In this document: positions 1,322 through 29,964 of the stretch, piece after piece | Layout: each line of letters begins with the position of its first letter | Position numbering within the stretch: the stretch's first letter is position 1 | Origin: an uncultured Chloroflexia bacterium | GTDB taxonomy: Bacteria; Chloroflexota; Limnocylindria; Limnocylindrales; CSP1-4 | Direction of reading: 5' to 3' | Assembly: GCA_963833225.1 (NCBI GenBank) | Contig: CAWHXD010000007.1 | Coordinates: forward strand, 32,001-96,000 | DNA length: 64,000 nt | Translations under genes and position numbers: made by a program | Notes under the pieces: generated by a model | Databases searched by the model: none | What the model was told of the DNA's origin: nothing | Seen by the model: the letters and a program-made list of their open reading frames with translations, nothing else

Positions 1322-1400
1322 GCCAGCCGCGGAGTCACCCGAGGCGCACCGGCAGCGGCCAAGCGACCGGGACAAAGAGGTCGGTGCCGGTGGTTTGAGA

Positions 1401-1416
1401 CCTCTCGCCCCGACCA
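1401..1416 (+). repeat. att-like core copy (type A arm)
   Basis: Exact CCTCTCGCCCCGACCA followed by GATCGACC, as at 3988 and 14025. Confidence 0.9.
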
Positions 1417-1559
1417 GATCGACCTTCTTCGTGCTCAGAACAGCCCGTCTCGAGGCCCTCGGCCAACGCCCCTGGTCACCCCAATGGTCTGGGCGCGCCG
1501 CCATGGCCAATCCCCCACGATCCATGCCAACCTCGGCCTTGGCTCAGCGGCGCGAATGC

Positions 1560-1880
1560 TCAGTCGGGCCTGACGCTTATCACCACATTGCCCTTCTTAT
1601 GCCCCTTCTCGACGTACTCGTGCGCCTCGCGAACGGCCTCGAGCGGATAGGTCCGATCGACCACCGCCCGAAGCGAGCCCGCCTCGAGCATGTCGCGGAG
1701 GTACCAGAGGTCGGCGAGCTTCTCGGTGGTGCTCGAGCGAACCGACCAGCGTCCGCGGCGACATCGTCACGTGTGTAGTCGATCACTCGCTCCGCGCCCA
1801 ATGACCGCACGAGGTCCAGGTCGGCCGTGCTGGACACCCCGGTGACGCGGGCACCGACAAGCCCCACAACCTCCATTCGA
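1560..1880 (-). pseudogene. NAD(P)-dependent zinc-type alcohol dehydrogenase/quinone oxidoreductase, C-terminal fragment
   Basis: GARVTGVSSTADLDLVRSLGAERVIDYT, then frameshift to AVVDRTYPLEAVREAHEYVEKGHKKGNVVI. Confidence 0.7.
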
Positions 1881-2000
1881 TCGTTGACAATGAAGACATA
1901 GGGGGACACGATCAACCTAAACCTTCAATCTCTTGGGGAGAATGAAGGCCTGCGAGGAGTGATTGCGGGCGGGGACGGCTCGGATCGATGGCCGCCGCCG

Positions 2001-2037
2001 TCGAAATCGTCGTCCTGAGTCGTGTCGCCCTGACAGA
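2001..2037 (+). repeat. Degenerate att copy (type B arm)
   Basis: TCGAAATCGTCGTC-CTGAGT-CGTGTCGCCCTGACAGA resembles the 10504-10541 and 15122-15159 copies. Confidence 0.65.
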
Positions 2038-2067
2038 TTGCGGATCTGAGTATGCGCCGCTGGCTGT

Positions 2068-3610
2068 TCACGGATGGCTCGCCGTGACCTCAAAGAGTTG
2101 CCATTCGCCCGGCACCCCGCGCAGTGCATGTTGTCCCGCGTCCTGCATTGGCACATCGGGAAGTGCGGAGGCCAGGTCTGCGGAGACGAGGATGTCCCCC
2201 GCCCCGGCTGTTCCCATCACCCGCGCGGCCGCGTGGACAGCCAGCCCGCTCACCTGTTCGCCACGCATCTCCACGTCGCCCAGGTGCAGGCCCGTTCGGA
2301 CGCGAAGACCGAGCCTCCCCACGCTTCCACGCATCGCCACCGCGCAGCGGATCGCGTTGCCCGGTCGATCGAAGACGGCGAAGAAGGCGTCGCCGGCCGT
2401 ATTGACCTCGCGGCCACGATACCGCGCCAGCTCCTGGCGCACCGCTGCCCTGTAGGCGTCAAGGACCTCCCGCCAGCGCTCGTCGCCCAGCGTGACGATC
2501 GCCTGGGTGGATTCCACGATGTCGGTGAACAGGAGGGTCAACCGGCTGCGCGCGGGCAGTGCTCGGTCGACGATCGGCCGCAGTCGATGACGCACCGGGG
2601 CGAAGGCGAGCCCGGCGGCCAAGCCCACTGCGGCCGCCATCAGATTGGAGCCCGACCGAACCTTGCCTGCAGTACGTTTTGCGCCACCACGTTTGCCGCG
2701 CCGAACACCACGAGCAGCACCAGGCTGACGGCCCCGTAGAGGGCAGTCCGGTTCAGGAACAGGTCAAGGTCGTAGAGTCGATAGCGAAGCATTGCGACCG
2801 CGAAACCGAGTGGCATGGCGATCCCGAAGCCGGCAACCGTGGTGACCGTCACCAACACGTTGACCTGGTCGAGTGGGACGATCAGCAGCGCGCCGACGTT
2901 GAGGCCAACGTTCAGGAACACCGCGAATGCCGTCGACCATGCGATCCAGCGCAGCTGCAACGCCTCCTCGCCCTGCGACCGCCTCAGCCGGAGCACGATG
3001 GCCACGCCGGCAGCCGCCACGATGCCCAGACCGGCCAGGTACAGGACGATGCCAAGCGGCGAGAGCGCCAGGCCCTCGAGCTCCGGCACGCCGGTCGGGT
3101 TGGGGGCGCCGGGCAGGGTACGGAGCTCGAGCCCGCGCGGGTCCAGCACCGTTGCGATCACCAGGAGCACGGTGACGGCCACCGCCGACCGCGCCACCCA
3201 CCGCCAGCGGCGCGACAGCAGCCGGCCATTCGGAACAAGCAGGAGGACGATCGGCGCCAGCCCAGCGGGGTACACCAGCGTGAGGGCAACGCTGCCGAAC
3301 CACGGGATCCATGACGTGAAGGGTGCCTGCGGGTTGGTATCGAGGGCGTAGCGCGTGAACTGCGTGGCTGCGCCGTTCAAACCCATGACCAGCGCCATCG
3401 CCAGGAAGATCCAGCTGTGGCGTTCCCGGTCTGGCGCGACGCGACCAGGGCGCCGAGGATGCCGAAGCTGACGGGCAGCACGATCTCGGCCGCGCTTGTC
3501 TGATCGAGCGTCTGGATCGACGCGCGATTGACGAACGCGAGCAGGGCGGTGCCGGCCGCGGCCAGCAGCGTAGCGACGCAGATCGACCACGCGAGGAGAC
3601 GGGCGCTCAC
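2068..3610 (-). pseudogene. Multi-TM membrane protein with class III adenylate/guanylate cyclase domain, split by two frameshifts
   Basis: LLFTDIVEST...AGDAFFAVF...RTGLHLGDVE...GLAVHAAARV in 2068-2640; hydrophobic segments in 2640-3420 and 3377-3610. Confidence 0.75.
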
Positions 3611-3830
3611 ACGGGGATGCTAACGGACGCGCTCCGCGCAGAGGAACCCGAAGATGACTGGTTCTGGCTGGTCTTCAGGGCGCCACATTCCGCGAGCATG
3701 TGAGCCGGCACGACGGGTACGAGGCGTCTGGGGCCGCAGCCGGCGTGTGCTAGGCAAACCGCTCGACGCGACCGCCGCCTGAGCCACCGCCCACGATCCT
3801 GATGGTCAGTTGGGAATTGCCGCAATGACT

Positions 3831-3846
3831 CCTCTCGCCCAGACCA
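3831..3846 (+). repeat. att-like core copy (1 mismatch)
   Basis: CCTCTCGCCCAGACCA. Confidence 0.8.
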
Positions 3847-3888
3847 GCTCGCTTCAGCACCGGATTCGTGCGTGGATTCATGCCCAGG

Positions 3889-5290
3889 TCAGGCAGTGGC
3901 GCTGCTGACCCACCGCTCCGTGCCCGTCAGAGCGAGCTCCAGCGGCCATGAGACCGGGACACTAGGGTCGGTACTGGTGGTTTGTCTCCTCTCGCCCCGA
4001 CCAGATCGACCAATCGAGATTGATTGGTCCCCAGCCCCGAAGGCTGCATCCCATCCGTGGGCCTTCGCGCTGGCGGTCAGCGTGAACGAGAAGTCGGTCG
4101 CCCCCAGCACGTCGATCCGCTCGAACACGGCTTCCGCGATCGCGTGCCGCCCGGCATCCGAGGTCTTCGCCCACAGCTCTGGCAGCGACTCCAGGTACTC
4201 CCGCGCCTCGGCGGCGGTCGGGATGCGTGACGGGCGGACCACCGCAGCCTGAGCCTCGGCGTCGAGCCGCGCCATCGTCGCCTCCAGCCGACCGAGGTCG
4301 CGATCCTTCGCGAACCGCAGGGCCGCCTGGTCACGCTCCCTGGTGATGCGGGCCTGGGCCAGGACGTCTCCGTTGTCGGGCTCCGGTCGCCTGGCCAGGG
4401 CGACCGTGCTGGCCTTGAGCGTCGACGAGACGGCCACGTGCTTGAATGCGAGGCCGATCGCGTCCTCGTACACCTCGACCTTGTAGGACTCGCCCTTGAC
4501 GCGGTGGTCGAGGTTCGTCTTCGCATTGCGCCGGTGGCGGCGCGGGGCAGCCGCCCGAAACGCCTCGCAGGCGTCCAGATGGCGGTACCGCCCGACGTGG
4601 CCGGTCAGGCGGCGGCCGCAGGCCGCGCAGGCCAGGAGCCCGGCAAGGCCGTACTGGCGGCGGTTGACCCCGCCGCGGTGCCGGCGGCTGTACCGGGCGC
4701 GCATCGCCTGGACGTGCTCCCAGGTGCCGGCGTCGACGAGCGCGCCCAGGGCTGACGGCTCGCCGGTCCGGAGGCGCCCCACATAGAAGGGGTTGGTCAG
4801 CACCTCCGCGACGTGCGTCGGCGCGAGGCCCGTGGCCTTCCCGACCTCGCGGTCGGTTCGCCCGCCTGCCGCGAGCTCGTAGGCGCGGCGGACGAGGCAA
4901 GCGCTCCTCGTCGACGGTAATCGTCCGGCCATCCCGCACCGTCCCCAACGGCGCCTTGTTGCCGCCCGGGACGCCGAGCCGCCGGCGCTTCGCCGCATAG
5001 CCCTCCCGGATCCGCTTCGCCAGCCGCCGGCTGTACGCCTCGGCCTCGACCGCCTCTCGGGCCCAGCGCTCCCACTCGTCCTCGTCGGTCGAGAGGACCC
5101 GCTCGTCGGCGAACAGGATCACCGCGCCTCGGGCGTGGAGGTCGTGGCGGGCGTTGACCGCGGTCCGCAGGTCCCGGGCGAAGCGGCTGACATAGCCGAC
5201 GACGAGGACCTCCCAGTCCTCGCCCGCGCCGGCGAGCATCTCCGCCCACTGGCCGGTCGCCGCGATCGTCCGCCCCGAGTGGGCAACCTC
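3889..5290 (-). pseudogene. Large serine recombinase (resolvase + recombinase + Zn-ribbon + coiled coil); N-terminus missing, frameshift near 4900
   Basis: HSGRT...VGYVSRFARD (resolvase SR..R motif), EAEAYSRRLAKRIREG, EVLTNPFYVG, LAGLLACAACGRRL; the att core sits inside its last ~40 codons. Confidence 0.85.
3988..4003 (+). repeat. att-like core copy within the LSR 3' end (type A arm)
   Basis: Exact core; the minus strand reads GRSGRGERRQTTSTD across it. Confidence 0.92.
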
Positions 5291-5370
5291 GTGGGGGTCA
5301 GAAACCCCGATTCGATCACGCAGCGACTCGGTCGTGCTCGTGGATCAGGCCGCCGAGTGCGGACTTCATG
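5291..5370 (-). mobile_element. 3' end remnant of an rve-type (IS3/IS481-like) IS abutting the truncated LSR
   Basis: LGGLIHEHDRVAA* followed by GGGGTTTCTGACCCCCAC. Confidence 0.55.
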
Positions 5371-5531: not shown

Positions 5532-6167
5532 ATGGACCTGGGTCGGCCGATCCGAGCCGTCGTTCCGTCGCTCGACGGGCCCGTGCTCGAGGTGCTCGCG
5601 GGCACGTCGCGACCGCTGACCATCTTCGAGGTCCAGCGTCTCGCGGGCGTCGGGAGCCCTTCGGGGATCCGTAAGGTCCTCGAGCGCCTCACGCGCGAGG
5701 GCGTGGTCGAGGTCGACCGTCGCGCCAATGCCGCCTACTACACGGCCAACCGGGAGCACCTTGCGTGGCCCGCGGTCGAGATCCTCGTCGGGCTGCGGAG
5801 CGCGCTGTTCCGGTTGCTGGCGTCAGAGATCCACGCCTTCGCGGTCCCTCCCGTCCATGCCTCGCTCTTCGGCTCCGCCGCTCGGGCCGACGGAGACGCG
5901 GAGAGCGACATCGACGTCCTTCTTGTCAAGCCCACCCTCGATGACGTCGCCGAGGAAGCCTGGGCCTCGCAGCTCGACACGCTCCGTGCGCGCGTCCTCA
6001 CGCGCACCGGCAACCGCTGTCAGGCGTTCGACCTCTCGCTCTCCCGGCTGGCCGAGCACGTCGGCGCCGACGACGCACTCCTCCGGTCCTGGCTTGCCGA
6101 TGGCGTCCTCCTGTTCGGGCAGCCGCTCTCGGACCTCGTCGATCAGGCAAAGGCGGTGGTCGCCTGA
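5532..6167 (+). CDS. HTH + minimal nucleotidyltransferase (MNT-type antitoxin)
   Basis: N-terminal wHTH; SLFGSAARADGDAESDIDVLLV (GS..DxD). Confidence 0.8.
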   Translation: MDLGRPIRAVVPSLDGPVLEVLAGTSRPLTIFEVQRLAGVGSPSGIRKVLERLTREGVVEVDRRANAAYYTANREHLAWPAVEILVGLRSALFRLLASEIHAFAVPPVHASLFGSAARADGDAESDIDVLLVKPTLDDVAEEAWASQLDTLRARVLTRTGNRCQAFDLSLSRLAEHVGADDALLRSWLADGVLLFGQPLSDLVDQAKAVVA

Positions 6168-6586
6168 TGGCGCGGGCGAGCGGACGGACCGCGACGTGCG
6201 GGCGGGCCGAGGCGATCGCGCGCCTGCGCCAGGCGCGCGCATTCGTCGAGGTCGCCGAGCTCTGTCTCGCCGACGTGGACAACCCGGACCTGCCGCTCCG
6301 TGGGGTCGCGGGTGCGCTCGCCGCGCTCGGCGGGATCGCCGCGTCGGACGCCGCATGCTGCGCACGACTCGGGCGACGCTCGAGGGGCCAGGATCACGCC
6401 CAGGCGATCACGCTCGTCGCCACCGTCCGCCCCGATGGCGAGCGGTTGGCGCGTGACCTCGGTCGACTCATCGCGATCAAGGACAACGTCCACTACGACG
6501 CGATCATGATCTCGATGACCGATGCGAAGGCTGCGGTCGCTCAGGCAAAGCGCATGGTCGGGATCGTCGACGAGCTCCTTCGCTGA
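6167..6586 (+). CDS. HEPN-like protein, partner of MNT
   Basis: Helical 139 aa, coupled to MNT; GIAASDAAC and LIAIKDNVHY (K instead of R in the Rx4-6H motif). Confidence 0.65.
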   Translation: MARASGRTATCGRAEAIARLRQARAFVEVAELCLADVDNPDLPLRGVAGALAALGGIAASDAACCARLGRRSRGQDHAQAITLVATVRPDGERLARDLGRLIAIKDNVHYDAIMISMTDAKAAVAQAKRMVGIVDELLR

Positions 6587-6843: not shown

Positions 6844-6859
6844 CCTCTCGCCCCGACCA
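6844..6859 (+). repeat. att-like core copy (type A arm)
   Basis: Exact core; 6811-6861 is identical over 51 bp to 22269-22319. Confidence 0.95.
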
Positions 6860-8058: not shown

Positions 8059-8179
8059 CCAGCTGGGGTTCCCACGGGCCCCGGCGCGTCTTCTCTCGTG
8101 TGCCGGCCAGCGGTTGAACGGTCAGGTGTGACTCTGTCTGCGCCGCCTGGCGGCACGTCTGTCGGGTGGCGAGCGGCGC

Positions 8180-8736
8180 CCGCGGTTGTAGTGCTCAGCG
8201 TAGATGCGGAGCGTGCCGTCGAGGTGCCGCCGACCGAGGATGAGGGTCCAGTCGAGGCACTCGGTTCGCATCGTCTCGATGACCCGTTCCGCGTAGGCGT
8301 TCGCGTTCGGAGCCCGGACCGGGGTGCGGATGACCCGGATCCTCTCCGAGCGCAGCACCGCGTCGAACGGGCCGCTGAACTTCGCGTCCCGGTCCCGGAT
8401 GAGAAACTGGAAAGCCGGTGACCGACCGTCGAGCCCGAGCGCGAGGTTGCGGGCCTGCTGGGTGACCCACGCCGCGTCGGGGTGCGCCGTCGCGGGGCTG
8501 AGGTGGATCCTCCGGCTGCCGAGCTCGATGAACACGAGGACGTAGAGGGTCCGGAGCCAGGCCGTCTCGACGGTGAAGAAGTCGCACGCGATGATGCCCT
8601 CCGCCTCTGCCCGCAGGAACTCGGTCCACGTCGGGCCTCTGCGCCGGCGGGCAGTACCCAGTCGCGCCGACCGGAGCAGGGTGCGGATCGTCGTCGCACC
8701 CACTCTGAAGCCGAGTTTGCGGAGCTCGCCCCCGAT
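8180..8736 (-). pseudogene. rve integrase-core (IS3/IS481-like) transposase fragment
   Basis: IIACDFFTVET...LIRDRDAKF...PNANAYAERVIETMRTECLD...HYN. Confidence 0.85.
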
Positions 8737-8857
8737 CCGTGCAGATCTGGCTCCGGTGATCGGTGCCGTGGTGGACGACCTGCGCGAGTCGGAAGCCAAG
8801 CGGCGAGTGGAAGTCCCAGCCGTCGCCGTGCTCGACGATGTCGGCATCGCCGTCGGG
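8737..8857 (-). pseudogene. DinB-family fragment, near-copy of 37675-37795
   Basis: DIVEHGDGWDFHSPLGFRLAQVVHHGTDHRSQICT. Confidence 0.75.
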
Positions 8858-8970
8858 TCTCGCCGCGAGCAGGCCTCGGCAAGCACGTGGCACAGCTTCT
8901 CGTAGAGGATAACGGCTTGGGGAAACGCTTCGAGCCCGTCCCCGAGAGGGCGAGATCAGTCTCCATTGTG

Positions 8971-9846: not shown

Positions 9847-10068
9847 ATGACGAAGGTGCGGACGACCCTGACCATCGACCCCGAGGTGCTGCGCGCGGTC
9901 AAGGTGCGTGCCGCGCGTCTGGGCAAGGGCGACAGCGACGTGATCGAGGAGGCCCTCCGCCGGGATCTCGGGCTTGACCTGCTCGACCGGCTGTGGGCGG
10001 CCAATGACCTCGATGAGGCCGAGGCGCTCGCGCTCGCGAGCGAAGCCCAGCACCGAACGCGCGCCTGA
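9847..10068 (+). CDS. Ribbon-helix-helix antitoxin
   Basis: KVRTTLTIDPEVLRAVKVRAA...SDVIEEALRR. Confidence 0.8.
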   Translation: MTKVRTTLTIDPEVLRAVKVRAARLGKGDSDVIEEALRRDLGLDLLDRLWAANDLDEAEALALASEAQHRTRA

Positions 10069-10080
10069 CCACGCCGCCGC

Positions 10081-10488
10081 GTGCGCGCCGTCCTCGACAC
10101 CAACGTCCTCATCTCGGCGATTCTCTCACCGCGCGGGACACCCGCCCGGCTTCTGCTGGCCTGGCAAGCCGGAGCGTTCGACCTCGTCGTTTCGCCGGCC
10201 CTCCTGGCGGAGCTGCGCCGGGCGCTCGCGTATCCGAAGCTCGAGCGGCTCGTCTCGCGGTCGGATGCCGATTCGTTTGTCGCCTGGATCGGCCATTCGG
10301 CGGTGCTCGCCACGGATCCGGAGGGTGAGCCGCCCGTCCACGCGGCAGATCCGGCGGACGACTACCTGCTCGCCCTCGCGGCCTCGGAGCGGGCGGTGCT
10401 CGTGTCTGGTGACGCCCACCTCACCGTCCTGGGCAACCGGTTCCCGGTCCGGACGCCGGCCGACTTCCTGGCGTCGCTGGAGACGTAG
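10081..10488 (+). CDS. PIN-domain toxin
   Basis: MRAVLDTNVLISA...ELRRAL...DPADDYLLALA...VSGDAHL. Confidence 0.9.
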   Translation: MRAVLDTNVLISAILSPRGTPARLLLAWQAGAFDLVVSPALLAELRRALAYPKLERLVSRSDADSFVAWIGHSAVLATDPEGEPPVHAADPADDYLLALAASERAVLVSGDAHLTVLGNRFPVRTPADFLASLET

Positions 10489-10523
10489 GGCCGCCAGCAC
10501 GTATCGAAATCGTCGTCGCCAAT

Positions 10524-10539
10524 CCTCTCGCCCCGACCA
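10524..10539 (+). repeat. att-like core copy (type B arms)
   Basis: ATCGAAATCGTCGTCGCCAAT-core-GATCTCATGACATGTCGAAGCCG. Confidence 0.93.
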
Positions 10540-10804
10540 GATCTCATGACATGTCGAAGCCGGACCCCTGCGGTCCGGCTTTCTTGTTGCCGGGCGGGTG
10601 GTCCTCCGAGCAGTCGCAACCGTAGGTCATCCGCGACCGGGAGGGCAACGCAGATGTGTACGGTCCTGATGAACCCGCACCCGGACCGCCGGCGTGGTCC
10701 GCCGCACCGTTCATTCTGTGGTTGACATTGAAGGGTTAGCGGACCAATCTTCAGCTATCCCTTCATTCTCGGCGGCCGAATGAAGCAATACGACTGGAGA
10801 CGGC

Positions 10805-12115
10805 ATGCCACGGTACGTCGAGCGGACTTGGGCGGGCGACCCGGGCGCGATGGGGGGACGCCGGGCACGAACGTCGTTCCGCTTCCGAGCATTCGTGCCG
10901 GACGACATCGCCGGACTGGCGCCCGTCGTCCCCTTCGAGGTGGCCGGCCTGGCGGCGGATGCTGAGGCCACGATCCGGGCCCTCAACGAGCGTGCCTCGG
11001 TCGGCGGCCTTGAGGCGATCGGCCCGTTGCTCCTCCGGGCGGAGGCGGTCGCCTCGTCGCGCATCGAGGGCTACGAAGTCTCGTCGCTCAACCTCGCCCG
11101 GGCGCTCGTGGATCCCCGAGCCGCGCGCGGGAGCGCCCGAACGGTGGCCGCCAACGTGTCGGCGATGGAGGAGGCGATCGCCATCGCTGACGGCGACCGG
11201 CCGATCGCGATCGACGACCTGCTAGCGATCCACGCGATCCTGATGTCCGGCGACGAGCGGGCACGGCCCGGTAACCTCCGCGACGAGCAGAACTGGATCG
11301 GCGGCCGGCTGGACAGCCCGCGCGACGCCGCATTCGTGCCCCCGCCGGAAGACCTGGTGCCCGCGTTGCTCGAGGACCTCGTCGCCTTCATCGCGCGGGA
11401 CGAGCTGCCCGCCGTCGCCCAAGCCGCGATCGTCCACGCGCAGTTCGAGACGATCCACCCGTTCATCGACGGCAACGGGCGCGTCGGCCGCGCGCTGGTC
11501 CACGTGGTCCTGCGCCGGCGGGGGGTTGCCAGTCGGTTCGTGCCCCCGGTCTCCATCGTGCTCGCGGCTCGTCCGGCGTCGTACATCGATGGGCTCACCG
11601 CCTTCCGCGAGGGACGGCTCTCCGACTGGATCGCCTCGTTCTCCGGGGCGGCGGCCATGGCTGCCACGGTCTCGATCGACCTCGCCGACCAGGTGGCCGG
11701 GCTGCAGGCGGCGTGGCGCGAACGGGCCGGCCGACCGAGGGCCGGTTCGGCGGCGGCGAAGCTCATCACCCTGCTGCCGGCACTCCCCGTCCTCTCGGCG
11801 CCGACGGCCCGCGTTGCCATCGGTGTGAGCCAGCAACAGACGCTCGCTGCGCTCAAGGCGCTTGCGGACGCAGCTGTGGTGCACCAGATCAGCGGCGGCT
11901 CGTACGACCGGCAGTACGCGGCATCCGAGCTGTTTGACCTGCTCACGGCATACGAGGCCCGGGTCGTCAGCAGGATCGGCCAACGGGGATGGGGTAAGGA
12001 CGGGGCGACAGACGGGGCGACAGGTCAGATGACACCGCAGCCGCCAGCGAGCCGGGATATTGAGGTCGATCGTGGAGGTTTGTCTCCTCTCGCCCCGACC
12101 AGATACGCCAGTTGA
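10805..12115 (+). CDS. Fic family protein (ORF extends through the att arm)
   Basis: HPFIDGNGRVGR Fic motif; N-terminal EAVASSRIEG. Confidence 0.9.
   Translation: MPRYVERTWAGDPGAMGGRRARTSFRFRAFVPDDIAGLAPVVPFEVAGLAADAEATIRALNERASVGGLEAIGPLLLRAEAVASSRIEGYEVSSLNLARALVDPRAARGSARTVAANVSAMEEAIAIADGDRPIAIDDLLAIHAILMSGDERARPGNLRDEQNWIGGRLDSPRDAAFVPPPEDLVPALLEDLVAFIARDELPAVAQAAIVHAQFETIHPFIDGNGRVGRALVHVVLRRRGVASRFVPPVSIVLAARPASYIDGLTAFREGRLSDWIASFSGAAAMAATVSIDLADQVAGLQAAWRERAGRPRAGSAAAKLITLLPALPVLSAPTARVAIGVSQQQTLAALKALADAAVVHQISGGSYDRQYAASELFDLLTAYEARVVSRIGQRGWGKDGATDGATGQMTPQPPASRDIEVDRGGLSPLAPTRYAS
12086..12101 (+). repeat. att-like core copy (type A arm)
   Basis: GAGGTCGATCGTGGAGGTTTGTCT plus exact core. 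Confidence 0.93.
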
Positions 12116-13922: not shown

Positions 13923-14349
13923 TCAGGCGATGGAGCGGTCGCGTAGCCACCGTGCCGAACCAGTCAGAGCGATGCTCAACGGCAAGGAGACCGGGACATT
14001 AAGGTCGGTCGTGGAGGCCTGTCTCCTCTCGCCCCGACCAGATCGACCTTCCTTCACGCGGACGACGCCGGCCCCGAAGGCCGCGTCCCATCCCCGGGCT
14101 TTCGGTTGGGCGGTCAGCGTGAATGTGTAGTCGGTCACTCCCGGGACGTCGATCCGCTCGAACGCGGCCTCGGCGATCGCGTGGCGGCCGGCGTCCGAGG
14201 TCTTCGCCAACAGCGCCGGCAGCGACTCCAGGTAGGCGCGTACCTCGGCGGCCGTTGGGATGCGTGACGGTCGGACCACCGCCGCTGCGGCCTCGGCGTC
14301 GAGCCGCACCATCGTCGCCTCGAACCGACCCAGGTCGCGATCCTTCGCG
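13923..14349 (-). pseudogene. Second LSR C-terminal fragment
   Basis: RLDAEAAAAVVRPSRIPTAAEVRAYLESLP...GWDAAFGAG...GRSGRGERRQ, close paralogue of 3889-4320. Confidence 0.9.
14025..14040 (+). repeat. att-like core copy within the second LSR fragment (type A)
   Basis: Exact core. Confidence 0.93.
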
Positions 14350-14450
14350 TGTGCGTGGTCACGCCGGCCACGTGCACGCGCCGCGAGTTCGACGAAGATC
14401 AGGATATCGGGCGTGGTGTTAGACTAGTCGCAGACCAGATGGAGAGGCGA

Positions 14451-14690
14451 ATGCGACGGATCGGTGCGTATGAGGCGAAGACCCACCTTCCCCGGCTGCT
14501 GGACGAGGTAGCCGGCGGGCAGGCGATCACGATCACGAAGCACGGTGTCGCGGTCGCGGTGCTGGGACCTGTGTCGGCGTCCCCGACCCGGACGCCGCAC
14601 GAGGCGATCGCGGGCCTGCGGGCCTTCCGCGCCGCCCACCCCCTCGGCGGGCTGTCGATTCGGGAGCTCATCGATGAGGGCCGGCGTTGA
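14451..14690 (+). CDS. Phd/YefM-family antitoxin
   Basis: MRRIGAYEAKTHLPRLLDEV..G..ITITKHG. Confidence 0.9.
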   Translation: MRRIGAYEAKTHLPRLLDEVAGGQAITITKHGVAVAVLGPVSASPTRTPHEAIAGLRAFRAAHPLGGLSIRELIDEGRR

Positions 14691-15097: not shown

Positions 15098-15141
15098 GCG
15101 GGTCGGCCGTTCGCTGAGTCATCGAAATCGTCGTCGCGATT

Positions 15142-20930: not shown

Positions 20931-21176
20931 TCAATCGTCCGAGTACTCCCCGCGCTCGGGCTCGGGCAGCCGCGGCGCGAGAATCCACACCTGCTGCGCC
21001 GTCGTCGTCACCCCCACCTTGGACCGGGCGTTCGCCAGGTGGTGCTTGACGGTCGAGTGCGAGATGCCGAGCCGGGCGGCGGCCGCCTTCTCGGATCCGG
21101 CAACGAGGACCGCGGCGACCACGACGACCTCGCGGTCCGTGGCGCGCTCGGCGGGGCGGGACGGCCGTCTGGTCAT
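20931..21176 (-). CDS. Small LuxR-type HTH protein
   Basis: TDREVVVV...KAAAARLGISHSTVKHHLANARSKVG; start overlaps the stop of an att-arm tail. Confidence 0.75.
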   Translation of the reverse strand: MTRRPSRPAERATDREVVVVAAVLVAGSEKAAAARLGISHSTVKHHLANARSKVGVTTTAQQVWILAPRLPEPERGEYSDD

Positions 21177-21256
21177 GCGCTCTGGAGCCATTCGGAATGC
21201 TCAGGAGGCTCGGCGAGACGCATGGTGATCGGAAGGTCGTTGGCGGCGGGCCTATG

Positions 21257-21272
21257 CCTCTCGCCCTGACCA
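21257..21272 (+). repeat. att-like core copy (1 mismatch)
   Basis: CCTCTCGCCCTGACCA. Confidence 0.8.
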
Positions 21273-21518: not shown

Positions 21519-21534
21519 CCCCTCGCCCCGACGT
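21519..21534 (+). repeat. Possible degenerate att core
   Basis: CTATGCCCCTCGCCCCGAC, sharing the CTATG context of the 21257 copy. Confidence 0.4.
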
Positions 21535-22301: not shown

Positions 22302-22317
22302 CCTCTCGCCCCGACCA
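22302..22317 (+). repeat. att-like core copy (type A arm)
   Basis: 51-bp identity with 6811-6861. Confidence 0.95.
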
Positions 22318-22421: not shown

Positions 22422-22670
22422 ATGACAGCAAGAGTCAAGCATCGTCGACGCGGCTATACCCGGGTCAGCGCGAAGCACCAGGTGACGCTCCCGGTGGAGG
22501 CCCTGCAGCGGGCTGGCATCCGGACGGGTGACACCCTGCGTGCCGAGGTTCGAGGCCCGGGAGAGGTCCTCCTGGTCCGGGACGTCGATCCCGTGACCCA
22601 GTTCGCCGGCGTGCTGACCGGTGTCTACACGCCCGCCGAGCTCGACAACCTGCGCGACGAGTGGGACTGA
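22422..22670 (+). CDS. AbrB/MazE-type antitoxin
   Basis: TRVSAKHQVTLP...GIRTGD...LRDEW. Confidence 0.85.
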   Translation: MTARVKHRRRGYTRVSAKHQVTLPVEALQRAGIRTGDTLRAEVRGPGEVLLVRDVDPVTQFAGVLTGVYTPAELDNLRDEWD

Positions 22671-23074
22671 CCGTCCTCGACGCGGGCGTCGTGATCGCGG
22701 TCCTCGATGCCGGCGACACGCACCACGCGGTCGCCGCGATGGCGCTGACGGACGCGCGCGATCGGGGCGACGAGCTCGTCATCCCGGTGTCCGCCTACGC
22801 CGAGTGCCTCGTCTCGCCCAGTCGGACTGGGCAAGCGGCCGTCGTCACGGTGGACCGGTTCCTCGACGGCCTTCCCGCGCGTGTCGAGCCTGCGACCCGC
22901 GTCATCGGCGCCGCCGCGGCCGCCCTTCGGGGCGCGCATGGACCTTCTCTGCGCCTGCCGGACGCCCTGGTCGTCGCCACGGCCATCGTGCTCGACGCAA
23001 ATCGCATCATCACGACGGACGCGCGCTGGCCGGCACTCGCCGTCAGTGTCGAGGTGCTCAGCAAGGACGGCTAG
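22661..23074 (+). CDS. PIN-domain toxin
   Basis: VLDAGVVIA...YAECLV...LRLPDALVVATA...TTD. Confidence 0.88.
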   Translation: MGLTVLDAGVVIAVLDAGDTHHAVAAMALTDARDRGDELVIPVSAYAECLVSPSRTGQAAVVTVDRFLDGLPARVEPATRVIGAAAAALRGAHGPSLRLPDALVVATAIVLDANRIITTDARWPALAVSVEVLSKDG

Positions 23075-23392: not shown

Positions 23393-24583
23393 TCAAGCCT
23401 CGGCCCCCCAGTCCGGGTCGAAGTCCGCTCCGTTGCGCCAGACGCCCCAGACGATGCTCAGAGCCTTGCGCATGCAGTGGCCGAGCGCGTTCATCTTGCT
23501 CTTGCCGGCGGCCCGCTTCCGGGCGTAGTGGGCAGCGATGACCGGGTTGTGCTGGACCCCGACGACCGCCATCCGGTACGCCGCTGCCCGGAGGTTGGCG
23601 TTGCCGGCCTTGCTCATGTGCCAGGAGGTCTCGGGGTTCGCCCCCTTGCGGCCCGAGCTCCGCTCGGCCGGGTGGACGCCGGCATAGGCGAGGAGCTGGT
23701 CGAAGTCGGTGAAGCGCCCGATGTCGCCGATCTCAGCGAGCAGGGTGGCGGCGATCGAGGGCCCGACACCCGGGATGGTCTGGAGCCGGCTGGCCGTCTC
23801 GCCGTCGAGGAGTCCCGCGACCCGCCGGTCGGCGTCGCCGATCTGGCGTTCGAGCAGGTCGTACTGGTCGAGCAGGAGGTCGACCTCGAAGGCGATCTCG
23901 GCGTCAAGCCCGGGCACCGCGATCGAGTCGGCCGCAGCCGCCTGGAGCCACTCCGCCTTCGCCGTCCCGAGGCGTCGGTGACCCGGACCGGCATTGGCGT
24001 TGGCCAGGGTCGACGTCCGGCGACGGGTGGCAGCGCGTGCCGTCGGCGCGATGCGCAGCACCTCCCGGGCCGTTCGGCAGGTCGGGTCGTCGAACAGCTC
24101 GCCGAGCTCCGGGAAGCCGAGCTCGACGAGGCGGATGAGGCGCTGGCAGACCCTGGCCTGCTCGGTCACCAGGGTCATCGCGAAGCGGGCCGCCTGGCGC
24201 AGCTCGGCGCCGGCGAGCGGATCGCGGGTGTCGGGCGTGTCGCGCATGGCCATCTCGGCAAGGCTCCGGGCGTCGGCCGGGTCGGACTTCGTGCGGCCCA
24301 GGCGGCTCCTCGCAAAGTACTTCGCCGCGAGCGGGTTGACCACCGCGACCGGGACATCGCGCCGCCGCAGGTGACTGGCCAGCGGCATCCAGTAGTGGCC
24401 CGACGACTCCATCGTCACGAGCGTCACGGGTTCCGGCTGCTGCTCGAGCCAGGTGTCGAGGGCAGTGAAGCCCGCTCGGTCCTGGCTGACCCGGAGGATC
24501 TCCCGGTCGGCCCGGGACTCGCCGTCCCGGCAGCGGGCTGCGACGTGCGTCCGTCCCCCGATGTCGATCCCGATCGTCGTCAT
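23393..24583 (-). CDS. IS110 DEDD recombinase/transposase
   Basis: GIDIG, MESSG, KSDPADA; IPGVG...AYAGVHPAERSSG. Confidence 0.95.
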   Translation of the reverse strand: MTTIGIDIGGRTHVAARCRDGESRADREILRVSQDRAGFTALDTWLEQQPEPVTLVTMESSGHYWMPLASHLRRRDVPVAVVNPLAAKYFARSRLGRTKSDPADARSLAEMAMRDTPDTRDPLAGAELRQAARFAMTLVTEQARVCQRLIRLVELGFPELGELFDDPTCRTAREVLRIAPTARAATRRRTSTLANANAGPGHRRLGTAKAEWLQAAAADSIAVPGLDAEIAFEVDLLLDQYDLLERQIGDADRRVAGLLDGETASRLQTIPGVGPSIAATLLAEIGDIGRFTDFDQLLAYAGVHPAERSSGRKGANPETSWHMSKAGNANLRAAAYRMAVVGVQHNPVIAAHYARKRAAGKSKMNALGHCMRKALSIVWGVWRNGADFDPDWGAEA

Positions 24584-24599
24584 CCTGGCCAGCCTCCTT

Positions 24600-24792
24600 C
24601 GGCGGACCTCAAGGGGGTCCCGGACGCCCCGGCCGACGTCACCTGACGGGTCCGATCACCGGTCAACTGCCGCAGGATCCCGATCACCGTTCACGGCCGA
24701 AGGTCGGGGGCCGGACACTAGCGACAACGGTCATCTGCCGGATAGGGCTGCGCCGGTCTCCCCGTGGAGGTCGATGTCATGATCGACCCACA
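24600..24792 (-). ncRNA. Candidate IS110 bridge RNA
   Basis: 5' hairpin at 24769-24788, then segments matching the target (24743-24749, 24718-24723) and donor (24676-24681, 24643-24646) in the expected order. Confidence 0.65.
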
Positions 24793-24923
24793 AGGCGGTA
24801 TATCAGGGCTCTGCGCGGGCCGCCTCCACGTCGACCGGATGCGGACACGATCGTGCGGAACGCTGTCGACGACCCCGCCGGATTGGGCGGTTCTCCAAGC
24901 CCACTGAGCGCCCACAGGCCTAG

Positions 24924-26744
24924 GTGGCCGGTGTGAAACGCGCGTTCTGACGGGCTGACGGACAGGCTCGGGCGCAGCGACGATTCTCCCTGGCAGGAGC
25001 TGCCGGGCTGATCGCAGGAGCACACCGATGTCGCAGGGATCCGCACCCCGCCAGGCCGACCTGTTCCGCGACACCGCGAGCTTCGTCGGGCCGCTGGTCC
25101 GATCCGACTCGATCCATGCCCTGCTCGCCCGAGAGTGCCACGCGCTGTTCCCTGACGAGCTGTTCAGCGACCTGTTCGCGGCGGGCGTCGGCCGGCGCTC
25201 GGTGCCGCCCCTGGTCGTCGCGGTCGTGATGGTCCTCCAGCGCCTCGAGGGCCTGTCCGACCGCGAGGCCGTCGAGCGGTACACCTTCGACGCGCGCTGG
25301 AAGTACGCCGCCGGCGGCCAGCCCTTCGATGCCCCGGGCTTCGCCCACACGGTGCTCGTCGACATGCGGGCGAGGCTCGCCCGCTCGGAGCGGCCCAACC
25401 GGATCTTCGAGCGCACGCTCGAGGTCGCGAAGGGTGCGGGGCTCCTCGGGGTGCGCCGGGTGCTCGACTCCACGCCCCTGTACGACGCGGTCGCGACCAT
25501 GGACACGGTCACCCTGGTCCGCTCGGCGATCCGGGGCGTGCTCGCGGCATCAGGCGAGCGCGAGCCCGGCCTGCGCACCGTCCTCCGGCGCGACGACGAC
25601 TACCGCCAGGGCGGCAAGCCCGCCGCGGACTGGGATGACGCCACCGCCCGGGCGGCCCTGGTCGACGCCCTCGCCCGCGACGGGGAGGCCGTGCTCGCCG
25701 GGCTCGAGGGCGAGCCGCTCGAGGCTCCGCTTGCCGAGGCCGCGGTCCTGCTCGCCACGGTGCTCGGCCAGGACCTCGAGCCGGGTCCGGACGGCCGGGT
25801 GCGGATCGCCCGGCGGGTCGCCCCCGACCGGGTGATCAGCACGGTCGATCCCGACACCCGCCACGGCCACAAGACGCAGGCCCGCGGGTTCGACGGGTAC
25901 AAGGGCCACGTCGCGATCGACCCCGACCATGAGCTCGTCACCGCGACCGCGGTCACCCCGGGCAACGCCGGCGACGCGTCGATCGCCCTTGCGCTGCTCG
26001 CGGACGACCTGGCGGACGCCGCACCCGCCACCCCGCCCGTCGTGTACGGCGACGCGGCGTACGGGACGGGCCCGCTGCTCGCGGCCCTCGGGCAGCACGG
26101 TGCCGTCAGCCGCCTCAAGGTCCAGTCGCCGGCCGGCATCGGGGGCCACTTCACCAAGGACGACTTCACGATCGACCTCGCCGCCGGCACGATCACCTGC
26201 CCGGCGGGCCGGACCGCGCCGCTGATCCGTCATGCCCCAGGCTTCGAGGCCCGGTTCCGGTCCGCCTGCGCCACCTGCCCGCTGGTCAGCCGGTGCACGA
26301 CCTCGGCTCGCGGTCGCTCGATCGCTGTCGGCCCGCACGAGGCGCTTCTCACTGCCGGCCGCGCCGACACGCGCGACCCCGCCTGGCTCGCCGACTACCG
26401 GGCAACGCGGCCGAAGGTCGAGCGCAAGCTCGCCCATCTCGTCCGCCGACGACACGGCGGGCGGCGGGCTCGTGTCCGCGGCAGGCTGAAGGTTGGCGCC
26501 GACTTCGCCCTCCTCGCCGCCGCGGTCAACCTCGCACGCCTCGCGGTCCTCCGGGTGACGGGATCTGGCGGGACCTGGGCGGTCCGGCCAGCCTGACGGA
26601 GGGCCAAGGCCCGCCTCGGGGAGCAGCCGGAGCACGCTCGGGGGACGGTTGCCGCATGATCCGGGCGCCAATCACCTGATCACATCCACAGACCACACGC
26701 GGGGTCCCGTCAGCCCGTCAGAACGCGCGTTTCACACCGGCCAC
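24924..26744 (+). mobile_element. IS1182/IS5-like element
   Basis: Perfect 38-bp inverted repeats at 24924-24961 and 26707-26744, flanked by CTAG at 24920-24923 and 26745-26748. Confidence 0.9.
25028..26596 (+). CDS. IS1182-family DDE transposase
   Basis: GRRSVPP..LQRLEGLSDRE; LDST; DGYKGH; YGDAAYG; CPAG..CATCPL..C; RPKVERK. Confidence 0.9.
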   Translation: MSQGSAPRQADLFRDTASFVGPLVRSDSIHALLARECHALFPDELFSDLFAAGVGRRSVPPLVVAVVMVLQRLEGLSDREAVERYTFDARWKYAAGGQPFDAPGFAHTVLVDMRARLARSERPNRIFERTLEVAKGAGLLGVRRVLDSTPLYDAVATMDTVTLVRSAIRGVLAASGEREPGLRTVLRRDDDYRQGGKPAADWDDATARAALVDALARDGEAVLAGLEGEPLEAPLAEAAVLLATVLGQDLEPGPDGRVRIARRVAPDRVISTVDPDTRHGHKTQARGFDGYKGHVAIDPDHELVTATAVTPGNAGDASIALALLADDLADAAPATPPVVYGDAAYGTGPLLAALGQHGAVSRLKVQSPAGIGGHFTKDDFTIDLAAGTITCPAGRTAPLIRHAPGFEARFRSACATCPLVSRCTTSARGRSIAVGPHEALLTAGRADTRDPAWLADYRATRPKVERKLAHLVRRRHGGRRARVRGRLKVGADFALLAAAVNLARLAVLRVTGSGGTWAVRPA

Positions 26745-26748
26745 CTAG

Positions 26749-26890
26749 GGGCGGCCGGATCGGCTCCAGGCCCGGCACCACCAGCCACCCCTCCGCCCGC
26801 CCCTGGTAGATCAGCTGCTCGGTCATGAGGCCCGACCGAGCCCGCAGGTCGGCCAGGCGGCGCCTCACTGTGCTGGGCCGGATGCCCACA
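26749..26890 (-). pseudogene. Second small LuxR-like HTH fragment, cut by the IS
   Basis: GIRPSTVRRRLADLRARSGLMTEQLIY. Confidence 0.5.
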
Positions 26891-26971
26891 CCTCGACCCG
26901 GCGTGGGGCCACAGCGGCCGACCCGGCGGTCCGGCATGTTGGCGGCGCGGGACCTGCGGCAGATCGGGGCT

Positions 26972-28220: not shown

Positions 28221-28236
28221 CCTCTCCCCCCGACCA
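28221..28236 (+). repeat. att-like core copy (type B arm, 1 mismatch)
   Basis: TCGATATCGTCGTCGCGACT-CCTCTCCCCCCGACCA. Confidence 0.85.
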
Positions 28237-28516
28237 TGAACAGCCGCCGAATCGCGTCACGAACCGGTTCCTGCGCGGGGCATCCGATCGCGCGGGGTTC
28301 AACCCCCACGGGATCTGTGATGCGGCTGCGCCCGCTGCGCCGCAGGCGGAGACCCGCGGGCTCCCGATGATGCGGCGATCGCCGACCCTGCTGGCCCGAG
28401 GTGGGGCCGTATGAGGCCGTGATCGCCGGATATGCGGGTGGCCTCATCGAGATGGCAGTCGAACTCCGGCGGTTCGGCCCTGAGCCACCGATGGTGCGGG
28501 GGCGCATCATGACCTC

Positions 28517-28819
28517 ATGACGAACCTCCAGGATCGGCGACGACCGAGGACCCAGGATGGACGGATCCTCGGCTGGATCTCTGGGCTCAGCCTGCTCCTC
28601 GCCCCATGGATCGTTGCCGGCGTCATCAGCACCTTGACGCCGGATCCGGAAGCGGCCTTTCCGTGGGGCTATGCATTTGGCCTTGTCGCCATGGCGGCCT
28701 GGATCGGCTTCGGAAGCTGGCGCATCCCCGGCTTCAGGAAGGGCGGTCTGATGGGCTCGGTGATGGCGCTTGGGGTCTTCGCCGTCTTGTTGGGCGTTCT
28801 GTTGCTGATGCAGCCCTGA
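28517..28819 (+). CDS. Small membrane protein
   Basis: Three hydrophobic segments. Confidence 0.6.
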   Translation: MTNLQDRRRPRTQDGRILGWISGLSLLLAPWIVAGVISTLTPDPEAAFPWGYAFGLVAMAAWIGFGSWRIPGFRKGGLMGSVMALGVFAVLLGVLLLMQP

Positions 28820-28934
28820 GTCGTCGTCACCCGGTTTGGATGGGCGTTCAGCCGAATCGGTATGCGCCCGGGCGGCGAGCGCTCTCTGGGTCCCCGGTCG
28901 AGACCCACCGGGCAGTCAGGCGAGCGGCGCCACT

Positions 28935-28967
28935 GGCAAGTACTTGACAACTAGGACAGTACTTGCC
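28935..28967 (+). promoter_or_regulatory. Inverted-repeat operator overlapping a -35 box
   Basis: GGCAAGTACT-13 bp-AGTACTTGCC with TTGACA at 28944. Confidence 0.65.
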
Positions 28968-29005
28968 ACACTCGCGCCAACAGGTCGCAGAAGAGGTACG
29001 AGACC

Positions 29006-29482
29006 ATGACGAATGCCCTGGAACCGGCCGAGGCCCGGGAGGCACTCGCCGAGATGGAGCGGCGCCAAGAGCAGGTCATCGAAGGGACGCTCGTTCCAGG
29101 TTGGTATTGGTGGGCCGTGGCGCTCCTGACCGTGGGCCTTGGTGTCGGCGTCGATACGCGCGACCCGGCTGCCATCGCAGCGACCGCCGGCATCTTCGGG
29201 GTGGCCATCCCGCTGCTCACCGTGTGGATCGCGTTTGGCGGTCGCCGCCACGTGAAGGTCCATGAGCGGCTCCTCGGCTCACGCGGTGCGGGCCTCATCC
29301 TTGGCTTCGTGTGGCTCGTGGTTGGTGGCACCCTTGCGCTGGCGTTCGCCCTCCAGGCCGCGGACGTCCGACCCGCGGGGACGATCTCGACCCTCGCCTG
29401 TGCGGCCGTGCTCGTCGTCGGAGGTCCGGTCCTGATGCGGCGGCTTCGCGAGATGATGCGGCGCCAGGCGGGGGTCGGTTGA
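29006..29482 (+). CDS. Membrane protein
   Basis: 4 TM segments; RBS GAGG. Confidence 0.75.
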   Translation: MTNALEPAEAREALAEMERRQEQVIEGTLVPGWYWWAVALLTVGLGVGVDTRDPAAIAATAGIFGVAIPLLTVWIAFGGRRHVKVHERLLGSRGAGLILGFVWLVVGGTLALAFALQAADVRPAGTISTLACAAVLVVGGPVLMRRLREMMRRQAGVG

Positions 29483-29874
29483 TGGCCACGCCACGGTTCG
29501 ACGAACTGATCCATGCCCGGACCCGGTTGTCGATCGTCTCACTCCTTGGCGCCTCGGACTGGGCGGAGTTCAGGTTTCTCCGCGAGTCCCTCGGTCTGTC
29601 CGACTCGGTGCTGTCGAAGCAGCTGACGCTGCTCGAGAACGCCGGCTACGTGAAGATCCGAAAGGCGTTCGTCGGCAAGCGACCCCGCACGTCGGTGAAG
29701 CTCAGCCCGACCGGGCGCCTCGCGTTCGAAGGCCACGTCCTCAAGCTCCAGGAGATCGCCCTGCAGGGTGGGACTTCGCTCGCCCGCGACGACAGATCGA
29801 CGATCGCGGACGATCCTCAAAGGCCCCCGGATCATGCAACAGCGTCGTCGCCCAGGGCGGACGCCAAGGCCTAG
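29482..29874 (+). CDS. Winged-helix transcriptional regulator
   Basis: FDELIHARTRLSI...LSDSVLSKQL..LENAGYV...GKRPRT. Confidence 0.85.
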   Translation: MATPRFDELIHARTRLSIVSLLGASDWAEFRFLRESLGLSDSVLSKQLTLLENAGYVKIRKAFVGKRPRTSVKLSPTGRLAFEGHVLKLQEIALQGGTSLARDDRSTIADDPQRPPDHATASSPRADAKA

Positions 29875-29948
29875 CGTTTGAAGGCCGCCGCCATCTGGCA
29901 CCACACCTGCAGGCAACTTCCCGCGGTGCGGGAAGTGTCGGTGCGACT

Positions 29949-29964
29949 CCTCTCGCCCCGACCA
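29949..29964 (+). repeat. Last att-like core copy (candidate right boundary of the array)
   Basis: Exact core; no further copies seen from 30 to 64 kb. Confidence 0.88.

Follow-up and report, generated by a model that had tools for sequence, protein, structure and literature searches.

Copies of a tRNA-Pro 3′ end, large serine recombinases and a probable tandem accretion array in an uncultured Limnocylindrales genome

We analyzed a window of 64,000 nt, positions 32,001–96,000 of contig C7 of the genome G000, a metagenome-assembled genome (MAG) of an uncultured member of the Limnocylindrales (Chloroflexota) with an assembly of 3.89 Mb in 20 contigs (C6, C8, C14 and C17 below are others of these), 86% completeness and 3% contamination. 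The first 30 kb of the window carry repeated copies of a 16-nt sequence, CCTCTCGCCCCGACCA (hereafter the core), which lies beside or within genes of large serine recombinases (LSRs) and matches the 3′ end of a tRNA-Pro gene of the same genome. A pattern search of the window allowing up to two mismatches returned 12 cores, nine exact and three with one mismatch, all on the plus strand; shuffled sequences gave a mean of 0.15 matches, and none of 100 shuffles reached 12. This search reproduced the positions and the single orientation listed in a preliminary description of this DNA made from the sequence alone. It found no match at up to two mismatches beyond position 29964 of the window, as that description had also stated, and the two degenerate copies reported there near 2021 and 21519 are real, with 5 and 3 mismatches in 16 positions, respectively.

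Identity of the array sites to the tRNA is limited to 16–17 nt, and the sequences to the left of the cores fall into families of arms: type A, of about 45 nt; type C, of about 50 nt and lying inside a conserved 330-nt end; and type B, of 21 nt (ATCGAAATCGTCGTCGCGACT and variants). Arms of types A and C are tRNA-like, the similarity starting at the anticodon arm and being broken by insertions or deletions. Exact cores with A-type arms lie at 3988–4003, 6844–6859, 12086–12101, 14025–14040, and 22302–22317, and an exact core at 1401–1416 follows an A2-type tRNA-like arm. B-type arms precede the exact cores at 10524–10539 (arm at 10503–10523) and 15142–15157 (arm at 15121–15141) as well as the one-mismatch core at 28221–28236, and a C-type tRNA-like arm precedes the one-mismatch core at 21257–21272. 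The remaining cores are a one-mismatch copy at 3831–3846 and the last, exact copy at 29949–29964. The degenerate copies occupy 21519–21534 and 2021–2036, the latter behind a decayed B-type arm at 2000–2020; in the related genome G019 (locus L025, approximately 10700–10760) a decayed B-type arm and core carry nearly the same mismatches. The right flanks of the cores also form families, two of which are 3′ ends of recombinase genes, and relatives (throughout, MAGs assigned to "Candidatus Limnocylindrales" or Chloroflexota) add at least three further types of left arm.

Searching all 3.89 Mb of the genome with up to one mismatch gave 18 matches: 16 on C7, every one on the plus strand and spanning positions 9017–61964 of the contig, one at C6:370282–370297, and a stray copy at C8:102263. 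The nine additional matches with two mismatches lie on both strands and are dispersed as expected by chance, and a control pattern, the core read backwards, had no match in any of the genomes searched. Base composition is even across the array. No Rfam model matched the window at gathering thresholds, and ARAGORN found no tRNA in it, so the partial tRNA copies come without a pseudo-tRNA annotation. GC-rich hairpins spotted by eye after some cores were not supported by a terminator scan of the window, which returned six sites, none at a core, against 4.9 expected.

The C6 match is the end of an intact tRNA-Pro(CGG) gene (C6:370221–370297, plus strand; ARAGORN), whose final 16 nt are the exact core, and C6 ends 4.5 kb beyond it. 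In the simplest layout the end of C6 would join the start of C7, giving an array of about 66.5 kb. The preliminary description had predicted a plus-strand tRNA-Pro gene ending in the core upstream of the window; the gene and the exact 16-mer exist, and its place upstream depends on this presumed adjacency of C6 and C7. The array comprises 16 closed modules of 0.14–13.7 kb bounded by 17 cores in the same orientation. Two modules contain a full-length LSR, three contain LSR remnants, and the remainder hold cargo alone. A nitroreductase-family gene (30166–31416) follows the last core, and the stretch 30166–32076 is 86% identical to one in the relative G001 that starts 13 nt after one core and has the next core 14 kb later; the island may therefore extend beyond 29964, or may once have done so, its outer core having since been lost here. 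We found no common ancestral downstream flank: in nine loci from genomes having just one exact core, seven with the tRNA-Pro intact, the sequences after the core are unrelated.

A recombinase gene on the minus strand of C6 (370309–372120) ends 12 nt after the tRNA, scores 32.5 bits against the Resolvase model (cut-off 23.3), and has a Replic_Relax gene as its neighbor. A second LSR copy adjoins the core at C7:9017; its protein is 92% identical to the C6 copy over 578 residues, and the two loci have 3.4 kb in common at 93% nucleotide identity. Remnants of another type of LSR, type A, which is about 40% identical to the intact recombinase, remain as stretches of 130–370 codons at C7:25328–26311, 35889–37293, and 45923–46351, and run on the minus strand through the cores at C7:25427, 35988, and 46025. 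Two of these lie in the window. The first (3889–5293, minus strand) is a decayed gene with the C-terminal two thirds in the frame 3889–4998 and a remnant of the catalytic domain in another frame (4979–5293), and the second (13923–14351, minus strand) is a C-terminal remnant of about 130 codons (frame 13923–14312). The cores at 3988 and 14025 fall within the frames 3889–4998 and 13923–14312, as the preliminary description had noted in placing two cores inside LSR genes. It had also named a serine recombinase and no IntI as the enzymology of the array, and the genes at the cores agree with this: no match to the tyrosine recombinase model PF00589 was found on C6 or C7 or among the 10 proteins encoded next to cores that were scanned in relatives. 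The three clear PF00589 genes of G000 are all on C17.

The recombinase belongs to a large family known from metagenomes only, with at least 361 metagenomic proteins at E ≤ 1e-5 among 8000 candidates scored, most of them 480–530 aa long. In an alignment of 30 members (47–92% identical to the query), Resolvase (PF00239) matches all 30, with a score of 33 bits against the cut-off of 23.3 for the gene P0001, and Recombinase (PF07508) matches 19 at E ≤ 0.01, the best at 1.3e-6; the copies in G000 itself remain below threshold for PF07508 (E 0.025 and 0.005). Residue S29, within an R-E-S motif, is invariant in this alignment, as are C295, C298, H311, and C315. A search of the PDB with the family profile matched the serine recombinase catalytic domains of 3g13 (2.9e-11) and 3guv and phiC31 integrase; only the profile matched, a phmmer search of the PDB with a single protein giving nothing significant. 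From these profile matches and conserved residues, two of the three domains implied by the name large serine recombinase are well supported.

The family is closely tied to the core. Of 18 homologue loci, 16 contain an exact core, which in 15 is no more than 100 nt from where the LSR match stops; 8 of the 18 have it as the terminus of an intact tRNA-Pro(CGG) gene, and 12 have a Replic_Relax partner. Core-encoded residues are found at the C-terminus of 29 of the 30 aligned homologues, as VGARG in one frame (13 proteins) or RGER in the other (16 proteins), the sole exception being the tRNA-adjacent copy of G000. Ten homologues end in RGERI or RGERT, where RGERI represents the core followed by antisense tRNA (ATT TGA), so that the antisense tRNA supplies the stop codon; four homologues read on through the antisense tRNA. 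The putative attachment core thus lies in the last codons of the recombinase gene, and because a passenger gene would not show such an ending, we do not regard the recombinase as a passenger of the array. The tail beyond the core depends on context. Selection on this tail at the protein level was considered and rejected, since variability at codon positions 1, 2, and 3 is 0.226, 0.221, and 0.207 across 13 A-type arms, one of which (G006:21977) is probably of another arm type.

Relatives of this recombinase occur at other tRNA genes. On C14 a member of the same family (C14:12981–14490; 45–47% identity in the catalytic region; frame changes present) is oriented towards the 3′ end of tRNA-Arg(CCG) (C14:14415–14490). 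The sole other exact copy of the last 16 nt of that tRNA is at C6:1842 and adjoins a stretch similar to the C-type right end (region C6:1498–1857). This locus has the appearance of a lone island of this type at a different tRNA, and the second copy suggests that C6 and C14 are joined start to start. In an unrelated metagenome bin, a recombinase relative with 24% identity (L021:6001–7362) adjoins tRNA-Ser(GCT). The wider recombinase family may target several tRNAs.

Exact cores are widespread in related genomes. They are present in 20 of the 24 other genomes of the genus, with 1–13 copies each, and in 127 of 151 genomes (≥80% complete; 41 genera; including the unpublished G112, with one copy) in a survey of the family, where 43 genomes have at least four and the range is 0–22. 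Arrays extend to at least 39 genera, and same-strand runs of 6–9 exact cores are found within single contigs of up to 4 Mb in G056, G141, G155, and G178. The tRNA heads the array on one contig in at least seven relatives. The genes upstream of the tRNA are syntenic at 82–84% identity, whereas the modules are not syntenic between relatives; content thus differs while the upstream flank is conserved.

Several modules document this variability. A pair encoding an RHH antitoxin and a PIN toxin (TA-1; window 15313–15929, minus strand) forms a separate, core-bounded module of 0.9 kb with a B-type arm in both G005 and G019, where the closed module is 83.7% identical end to end and has different neighbors on both sides; in G000, G010, and G014 one of its boundaries is lost. 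A second RHH/PIN pair (TA-2; 9847–10488, plus strand), which ends 36 nt before a core, is a separate module of 841 bp in G013, and a gene for a Fic protein (10805–12115, plus strand) is a separate module of 1.4–1.7 kb in G006 and G014. TA-2 precedes Fic in G000 and G014, and the order is reversed in G013. Likewise, a module with a nucleotide cyclase domain gene and a 316-aa gene of an unknown family (2068–3590, minus strand) is found before TA-1 in G000 and after it in G019. Modules with cargo alone stand directly after the intact tRNA in G018 (HepT) and G019 (ATPase). Three modules are more similar between genomes than the flanks are: the cyclase module is 96.6% identical in G019 (flank 84.3%), a module with a Phd antitoxin and a PIN toxin (14349–15097, plus strand) is 95.8% identical in G010 (flank 68–76%), and an LSR module is 91.5% identical in G014 (flank 82.9%). 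This excess of module over flank identity points to recent transfer between species. The right boundary of homology between the cyclase modules of G000 and G019 is the exact right edge of the core. The comparison of module content and order in relatives that the preliminary description had proposed thus shows both to differ, with several breakpoints at cores. Contigs from four other metagenomes, 90–99% alike and derived from relatives rather than from this strain, join two toxin–antitoxin (TA) pair ends to B-type arms, and one of them has a C-type arm directly before the 22302 core, where G000 has an A-type arm; their support for dynamics is weak.

Annotation of the window genes bears out the cargo already recognized from the sequence, namely TA pairs, Fic, ATPases, transporters, and regulators. 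The five or six TA pairs are Phd/YoeB-ParE, two RHH/PIN, Phd/PIN, MazE/PIN, and a nucleotidyltransferase pair, and no classical TA pair is farther than about 160 nt from a core. Such pairs, together with candidate defense genes, make up most of the cargo. In addition to the pairs located above, a Phd/YefM antitoxin with a YoeB/ParE-like toxin (738–1321, plus strand) ends 80 nt before a core, a nucleotidyltransferase with a 139-aa partner is encoded at 5532–6586 (plus strand), and a MazE/AbrB antitoxin with a PIN toxin (22422–23074, plus strand) starts about 100 nt after a core; in G013 this last pair is 91.6% identical and also directly follows a core. Upstream of the TA-1 antitoxin, at 15930–15990, a palindrome-like element, GAGTATACATCTA ... 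CGTATAC, is kept in five of five aligned genomes and is probably the operator of the RHH/PIN pair. Apart from the TA pairs, the window carries Fic, an AAA_14-DUF4143 ATPase (12267–13667, plus strand), the cyclase gene pair, a chromate transporter, an F420H2-dependent quinone reductase, PadR, a ZIP transporter, and hydrolases. PADLOC labels the Fic protein SoFic (2.5e-67), the ATPases PDC-S01 (1.4e-163 for one and 2e-19 for another), and the nucleotidyltransferase PDC-M05A. Two LSR elements outside the window also carry an amidase-LysM protein, an ECF sigma factor, a STAND NTPase, and insertion sequence (IS) copies.

Small DNA-binding genes recur near the cores. An 86-aa helix–turn–helix gene (20931–21191, minus strand) is part of the conserved C-type right end, where versions of 86–89 aa are found, and may encode a regulator or directionality factor; on a circular element it would sit just downstream of the recombinase gene. 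Three related helix–turn–helix genes (75–82 aa, 76–84% nucleotide identity) lie in different modules, at window 26710–26937 (minus strand), C7:4591–4839, and C7:30799–31047, the last ending 90 nt before the core at C7:31137. Taken together, they suggest that the right ends of elements include small genes for DNA-binding proteins. The modules are being reshaped by IS elements: the window contains IS110, IS4-like, and IS3 fragments, and an IS110-family transposase (23393–24583, minus strand) and a DDE transposase (25028–26596, plus strand) are inserted in one module (23393–26596). Two IS3-family (rve) copies inside the second LSR element (C7:15343–16505 and C7:19653–20814) are 97% identical, related fragments are present at the end of C6 and at window 8122–8886, and an IS21 IstB-like gene and a Mutator-family fragment lie near the IS3-family copies.

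We propose that the array was built by LSR-driven tandem accretion at the 3′ end of tRNA-Pro(CGG) and that window positions 1–29964 are its distal part, a reading to which we assign a probability of roughly 0.8. It is based on the anatomy of the locus, the tRNA, the association of LSRs with the core across the protein family, the absence of tyrosine recombinases from C6, C7, and the core-adjacent genes scanned, and the variability between genomes. In its main lines it agrees with the preliminary description, in which a serine recombinase serially accretes modules at a tRNA-Pro locus. Under this proposal, circular elements would carry the arm, the core, and the recombinase end, with the LSR paired with the Replic_Relax protein in intact elements, and the LSR of an element would integrate the circle at the tRNA-Pro 3′ end. 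The LSR is thus the presumed catalyst of integration, and crossover would occur inside the 16-nt core, a placement that the 16–17 nt shared by the sites would dictate. The tRNA would be restored because the incoming site carries a copy of its last 16 nt, and the displaced core would stay behind as the direct repeat that marks the far end of the element. Repeated integration would build the array, and internal deletions and IS insertions would erode its modules. The core, kept at all junctions, probably forms much of one half-site, and junctions may therefore remain substrates, which would permit modules to be inserted one after another, excised singly or several at a time, and reshuffled. The module comparisons described above suggest that modules have been exchanged between species and reshuffled at cores. 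TA pairs stabilize chromosomal integrons, and by analogy those found here may stabilize the array.

LSR attachment sites have half-sites of a characteristic geometry, and inverted GGTCG...CGACC motifs seen by eye at the A- and C-type sites, about 22 nt to the left and 20–24 nt to the right of the left edge of the core, resemble this pattern. On the tRNA the motifs lie closer in, and we treat them only as a lead.

Several observations weigh against accretion by the LSR as outlined. Neither a circle nor an empty site was seen as a product of recombination, and among the sequencing runs searched none contained more than 0.13 of the sampled words. The tRNA and the array lie on separate contigs that no relative we found bridges. 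Recombinase types and left-arm types show no one-to-one pairing: LSR-C elements have C-, B-, or F-type arms at their ends, and a C-type arm terminates an LSR-A element in G024. This is not what would be predicted if modules were simply kept intact; either the enzymes tolerate several arms or modules have been extensively fused and exchanged. On its left side, the homology of the cyclase module begins some 10 nt before the shared decayed B-type arm and core rather than at a core. The Pfam zinc-ribbon model PF13408 matches none of the 30 family members at E ≤ 0.01, with E 0.012 in a type-A remnant. Finally, the tRNA-adjacent LSR is frameshifted about 28 codons before the core and has lost the family C-terminus, whose consensus is retained in the C7 copy, and the copies of type A are broken; activity in this genome at present is therefore uncertain, although assembly indel errors could also have caused these breaks.

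The rival that deserves most attention also invokes LSRs. In it, serial LSR integrations were followed by decay, the recombinase-less modules are inert and never moved by themselves, and genomes differ through gain and loss of whole LSR elements together with homologous recombination between repeats of 16–60 nt. The LSR remnants at three cores, the decayed cores at 2021 and 21519, the IS copies inside modules, and the lost TA-1 boundary in G000, G010, and G014 would all be expected of such a graveyard, and accretion with decay is an established model for elements with tyrosine recombinases, namely cis-mobilizable elements (CIMEs), according to the account in PMC5704250. It is harder to reconcile with the closed 0.9-kb TA-1 module, which keeps its internal flanks amid different neighbors in G005 and G019, with the two inversions of order, which concern only recombinase-less modules, with the cargo-only modules adjoining an intact tRNA in G018 and G019, and with a recombinase-less cyclase module that is 96.6% identical between species whose flanks are 84% identical. 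We consider this explanation doubtful, though a real possibility.

Alternatives to LSR-driven accretion that dispense with the LSR fare far worse. A tyrosine integrase or another enzyme, encoded elsewhere or since lost, might have built the array with the serine recombinases as passengers: tRNA 3′ ends are the usual targets of tyrosine integrases as summarized in PMC5704250, the A- and C-type arms are similar to the tRNA starting at its anticodon arm, a resemblance often seen in attP sites of tyrosine elements, and C17 carries three PF00589 genes. Nevertheless, PF00589 is absent from C6 and C7 and from the 10 core-adjacent proteins scanned in relatives, and the LSR frame ends in or crosses the core in 29 of 30 members from many organisms, which makes this scenario very unlikely. 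We judge it highly improbable that the array is a chimera stitched at short repeats from several strains; this would suit a 20-contig MAG that is 86% complete with 3% contamination, whose contigs break inside repeated LSR elements and whose recombinase genes are in several cases frameshifted, but not the same-strand arrays of 6–9 exact copies inside contigs of up to 4 Mb in G056, G141, G155, and G178, the tRNA-headed arrays in at least seven relatives, or the even composition across the array. Lastly, a short, GC-rich, and often intergenic sequence such as the core could be a dispersed repeat akin to repetitive extragenic palindromes (REP) or miniature inverted-repeat transposable elements (MITE), unrelated to site-specific integration. 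The preliminary description had named genome-wide scatter as the sign of such a repeat. The genome-wide search refutes this idea, which retains practically no probability: the core is confined to the C7 run and the tRNA end, has one orientation and is identical to the tRNA 3′ end, and the reversed control pattern had no matches.

If LSR-driven accretion is accepted, the modules without a recombinase may still be more than debris. We tentatively raise the possibility of a working serine-recombinase cassette system, in which such modules would be excised, exchanged, and reinserted in trans by LSRs from neighboring or incoming elements. The TA, SoFic, and PDC-S01 modules, from below 1 kb to 2 kb in size, would then each carry a half-site of 21–45 nt (arms of types A, B, C, and others) beside the tRNA-derived core, a feature we propose with equal caution, and every junction would stay a usable target because every junction keeps the 16-nt core. 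At the same time, many modules are visibly decayed elements and not purpose-built cassettes.

The closest known case is that of the ssrA islands of Dehalococcoides, whose architecture, as far as the account in PMC3146451 describes it, matches almost point for point. Those islands lie in tandem downstream of a stable-RNA gene and are delimited by a 20-bp direct repeat of its 3′ end; their integration module lies on the reverse strand beside attL and starts with a serine recombinase of about 500–540 aa, DsiB, followed by a small second serine recombinase and RecF-, ParB-, and Mom-like genes; and 15 of 31 islands lack the integration module and are proposed to be cis-mobilizable (PMC3146451). The two systems share the phylum, the tandem arrangement at an RNA gene, and the 3′-end repeat (20 bp there, 16 nt here). 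They differ in the target, which is tmRNA there and tRNA-Pro here; in the integration module, an LSR with Replic_Relax being found here; and in the cargo, which there consists of reductive dehalogenase operons (PMC3146451) and here of TA and defense modules down to 0.8–0.9 kb. The core lies inside the recombinase frame here, a feature that the description of DsiB drawn on for this comparison does not mention. With its tRNA-Pro target and its Replic_Relax neighbor, the present locus lacks the ssrA target and the DsiB/DsiA module of ssrA islands.

Tycheposons, CIME accretion, and SCC composites are looser matches. Tycheposons of Prochlorococcus, as reported in bioRxiv 10.1101/2020.12.28.424599, are similar in their partial tRNA copies, in the older elements pushed inward, in their fragmented integrases, and in their cargo modules. 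In the same account 910 of 937 use tyrosine recombinases and 27 a large serine recombinase, several tRNAs are targeted, genomes carry one or two elements on average, and the hosts are cyanobacteria. Accretion of CIMEs, ICEs (elements that integrate and conjugate), and IMEs (elements that integrate and can be mobilized), of the ICESt1 type, proceeds by integration, decay that keeps attL and attR, and integration of a further element, after which composites can move together; serine-recombinase IMEs have very short repeats and usually interrupt genes (both as outlined in PMC5704250). The enzymes of CIME accretion described there are tyrosine recombinases, in contrast to the serine type and the tRNA-restoring 16-nt repeat found here.

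Chromosomal integrons likewise form long, one-orientation arrays of small cassettes, many with TA pairs, that vary between relatives. The label integron-like used in the preliminary description therefore stands as a functional analogy; by membership the array is not an integron, because it has no IntI-type recombinase (no PF00589 match on C6 or C7). Moreover, its repeats reproduce a tRNA end and have double-stranded arm types, unlike attC hairpins; a fixed platform comprising attI and a promoter is missing, and the recombinase is carried within the modules. Myxophage Mx8 and archaeal viruses of the SSV type carry attP inside their own tyrosine integrase gene, and integration alters or cuts its 3′ end. 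A core inside the integrase frame is common to these viruses and our elements; here the enzyme is of the serine type and only the last few codons are affected. In the staphylococcal cassette chromosome (SCC) and SCCmec, LSRs (CcrAB) integrate at the 3′ end of a conserved gene, rlmH, and form tandem composites bounded by direct repeats, in which some units have no recombinase. SCC differs in its protein-coding target, its two recombinases CcrA and CcrB, its Firmicutes hosts, and its resistance cargo; composite SCC/SCCmec islands are also mentioned in PMC3146451. A limited search of the open-access literature found no description of LSR arrays at tRNA-Pro or in Limnocylindria.

The arrays described here differ from known islands in the tRNA-Pro target, the Replic_Relax partner, the cassette-sized TA and defense modules, the core in the recombinase frame, and the distribution over at least 39 genera. 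Integration at gene ends is described for tyrosine enzymes and intragenic integration for serine enzymes in the account of PMC5704250, and serine integrases are usually described as inserting within genes with minimal repeats. The present LSR family, large and hitherto uncharacterized, departs from this description, since it appears to target one tRNA 3′ end, to restore it by a 16-nt copy, and to have its own frame end in that copy. Arrays of up to 22 repeats are found in many genera of an abundant uncultured bacterial order, and TA and candidate anti-phage genes are concentrated in cassette-sized modules that seem to move between species. LSRs with a defined, conserved 16-nt target could also interest those who mine serine integrases for genome-engineering tools. 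If the recombinase-less modules do form a working cassette system, the locus would be the equivalent of an integron without IntI, attC, or attI across a family of soil Chloroflexota, and, through the core in its last codons, the LSR would take a form that depends on the state of integration. An LSR acting in trans on modules would amount to a second, independent route to an integron-like platform for gene capture. If it does not act in trans, the arrays would still be the clearest tRNA counterpart of the Dehalococcoides ssrA islands and would show that islands arise in this way widely across the Chloroflexota.

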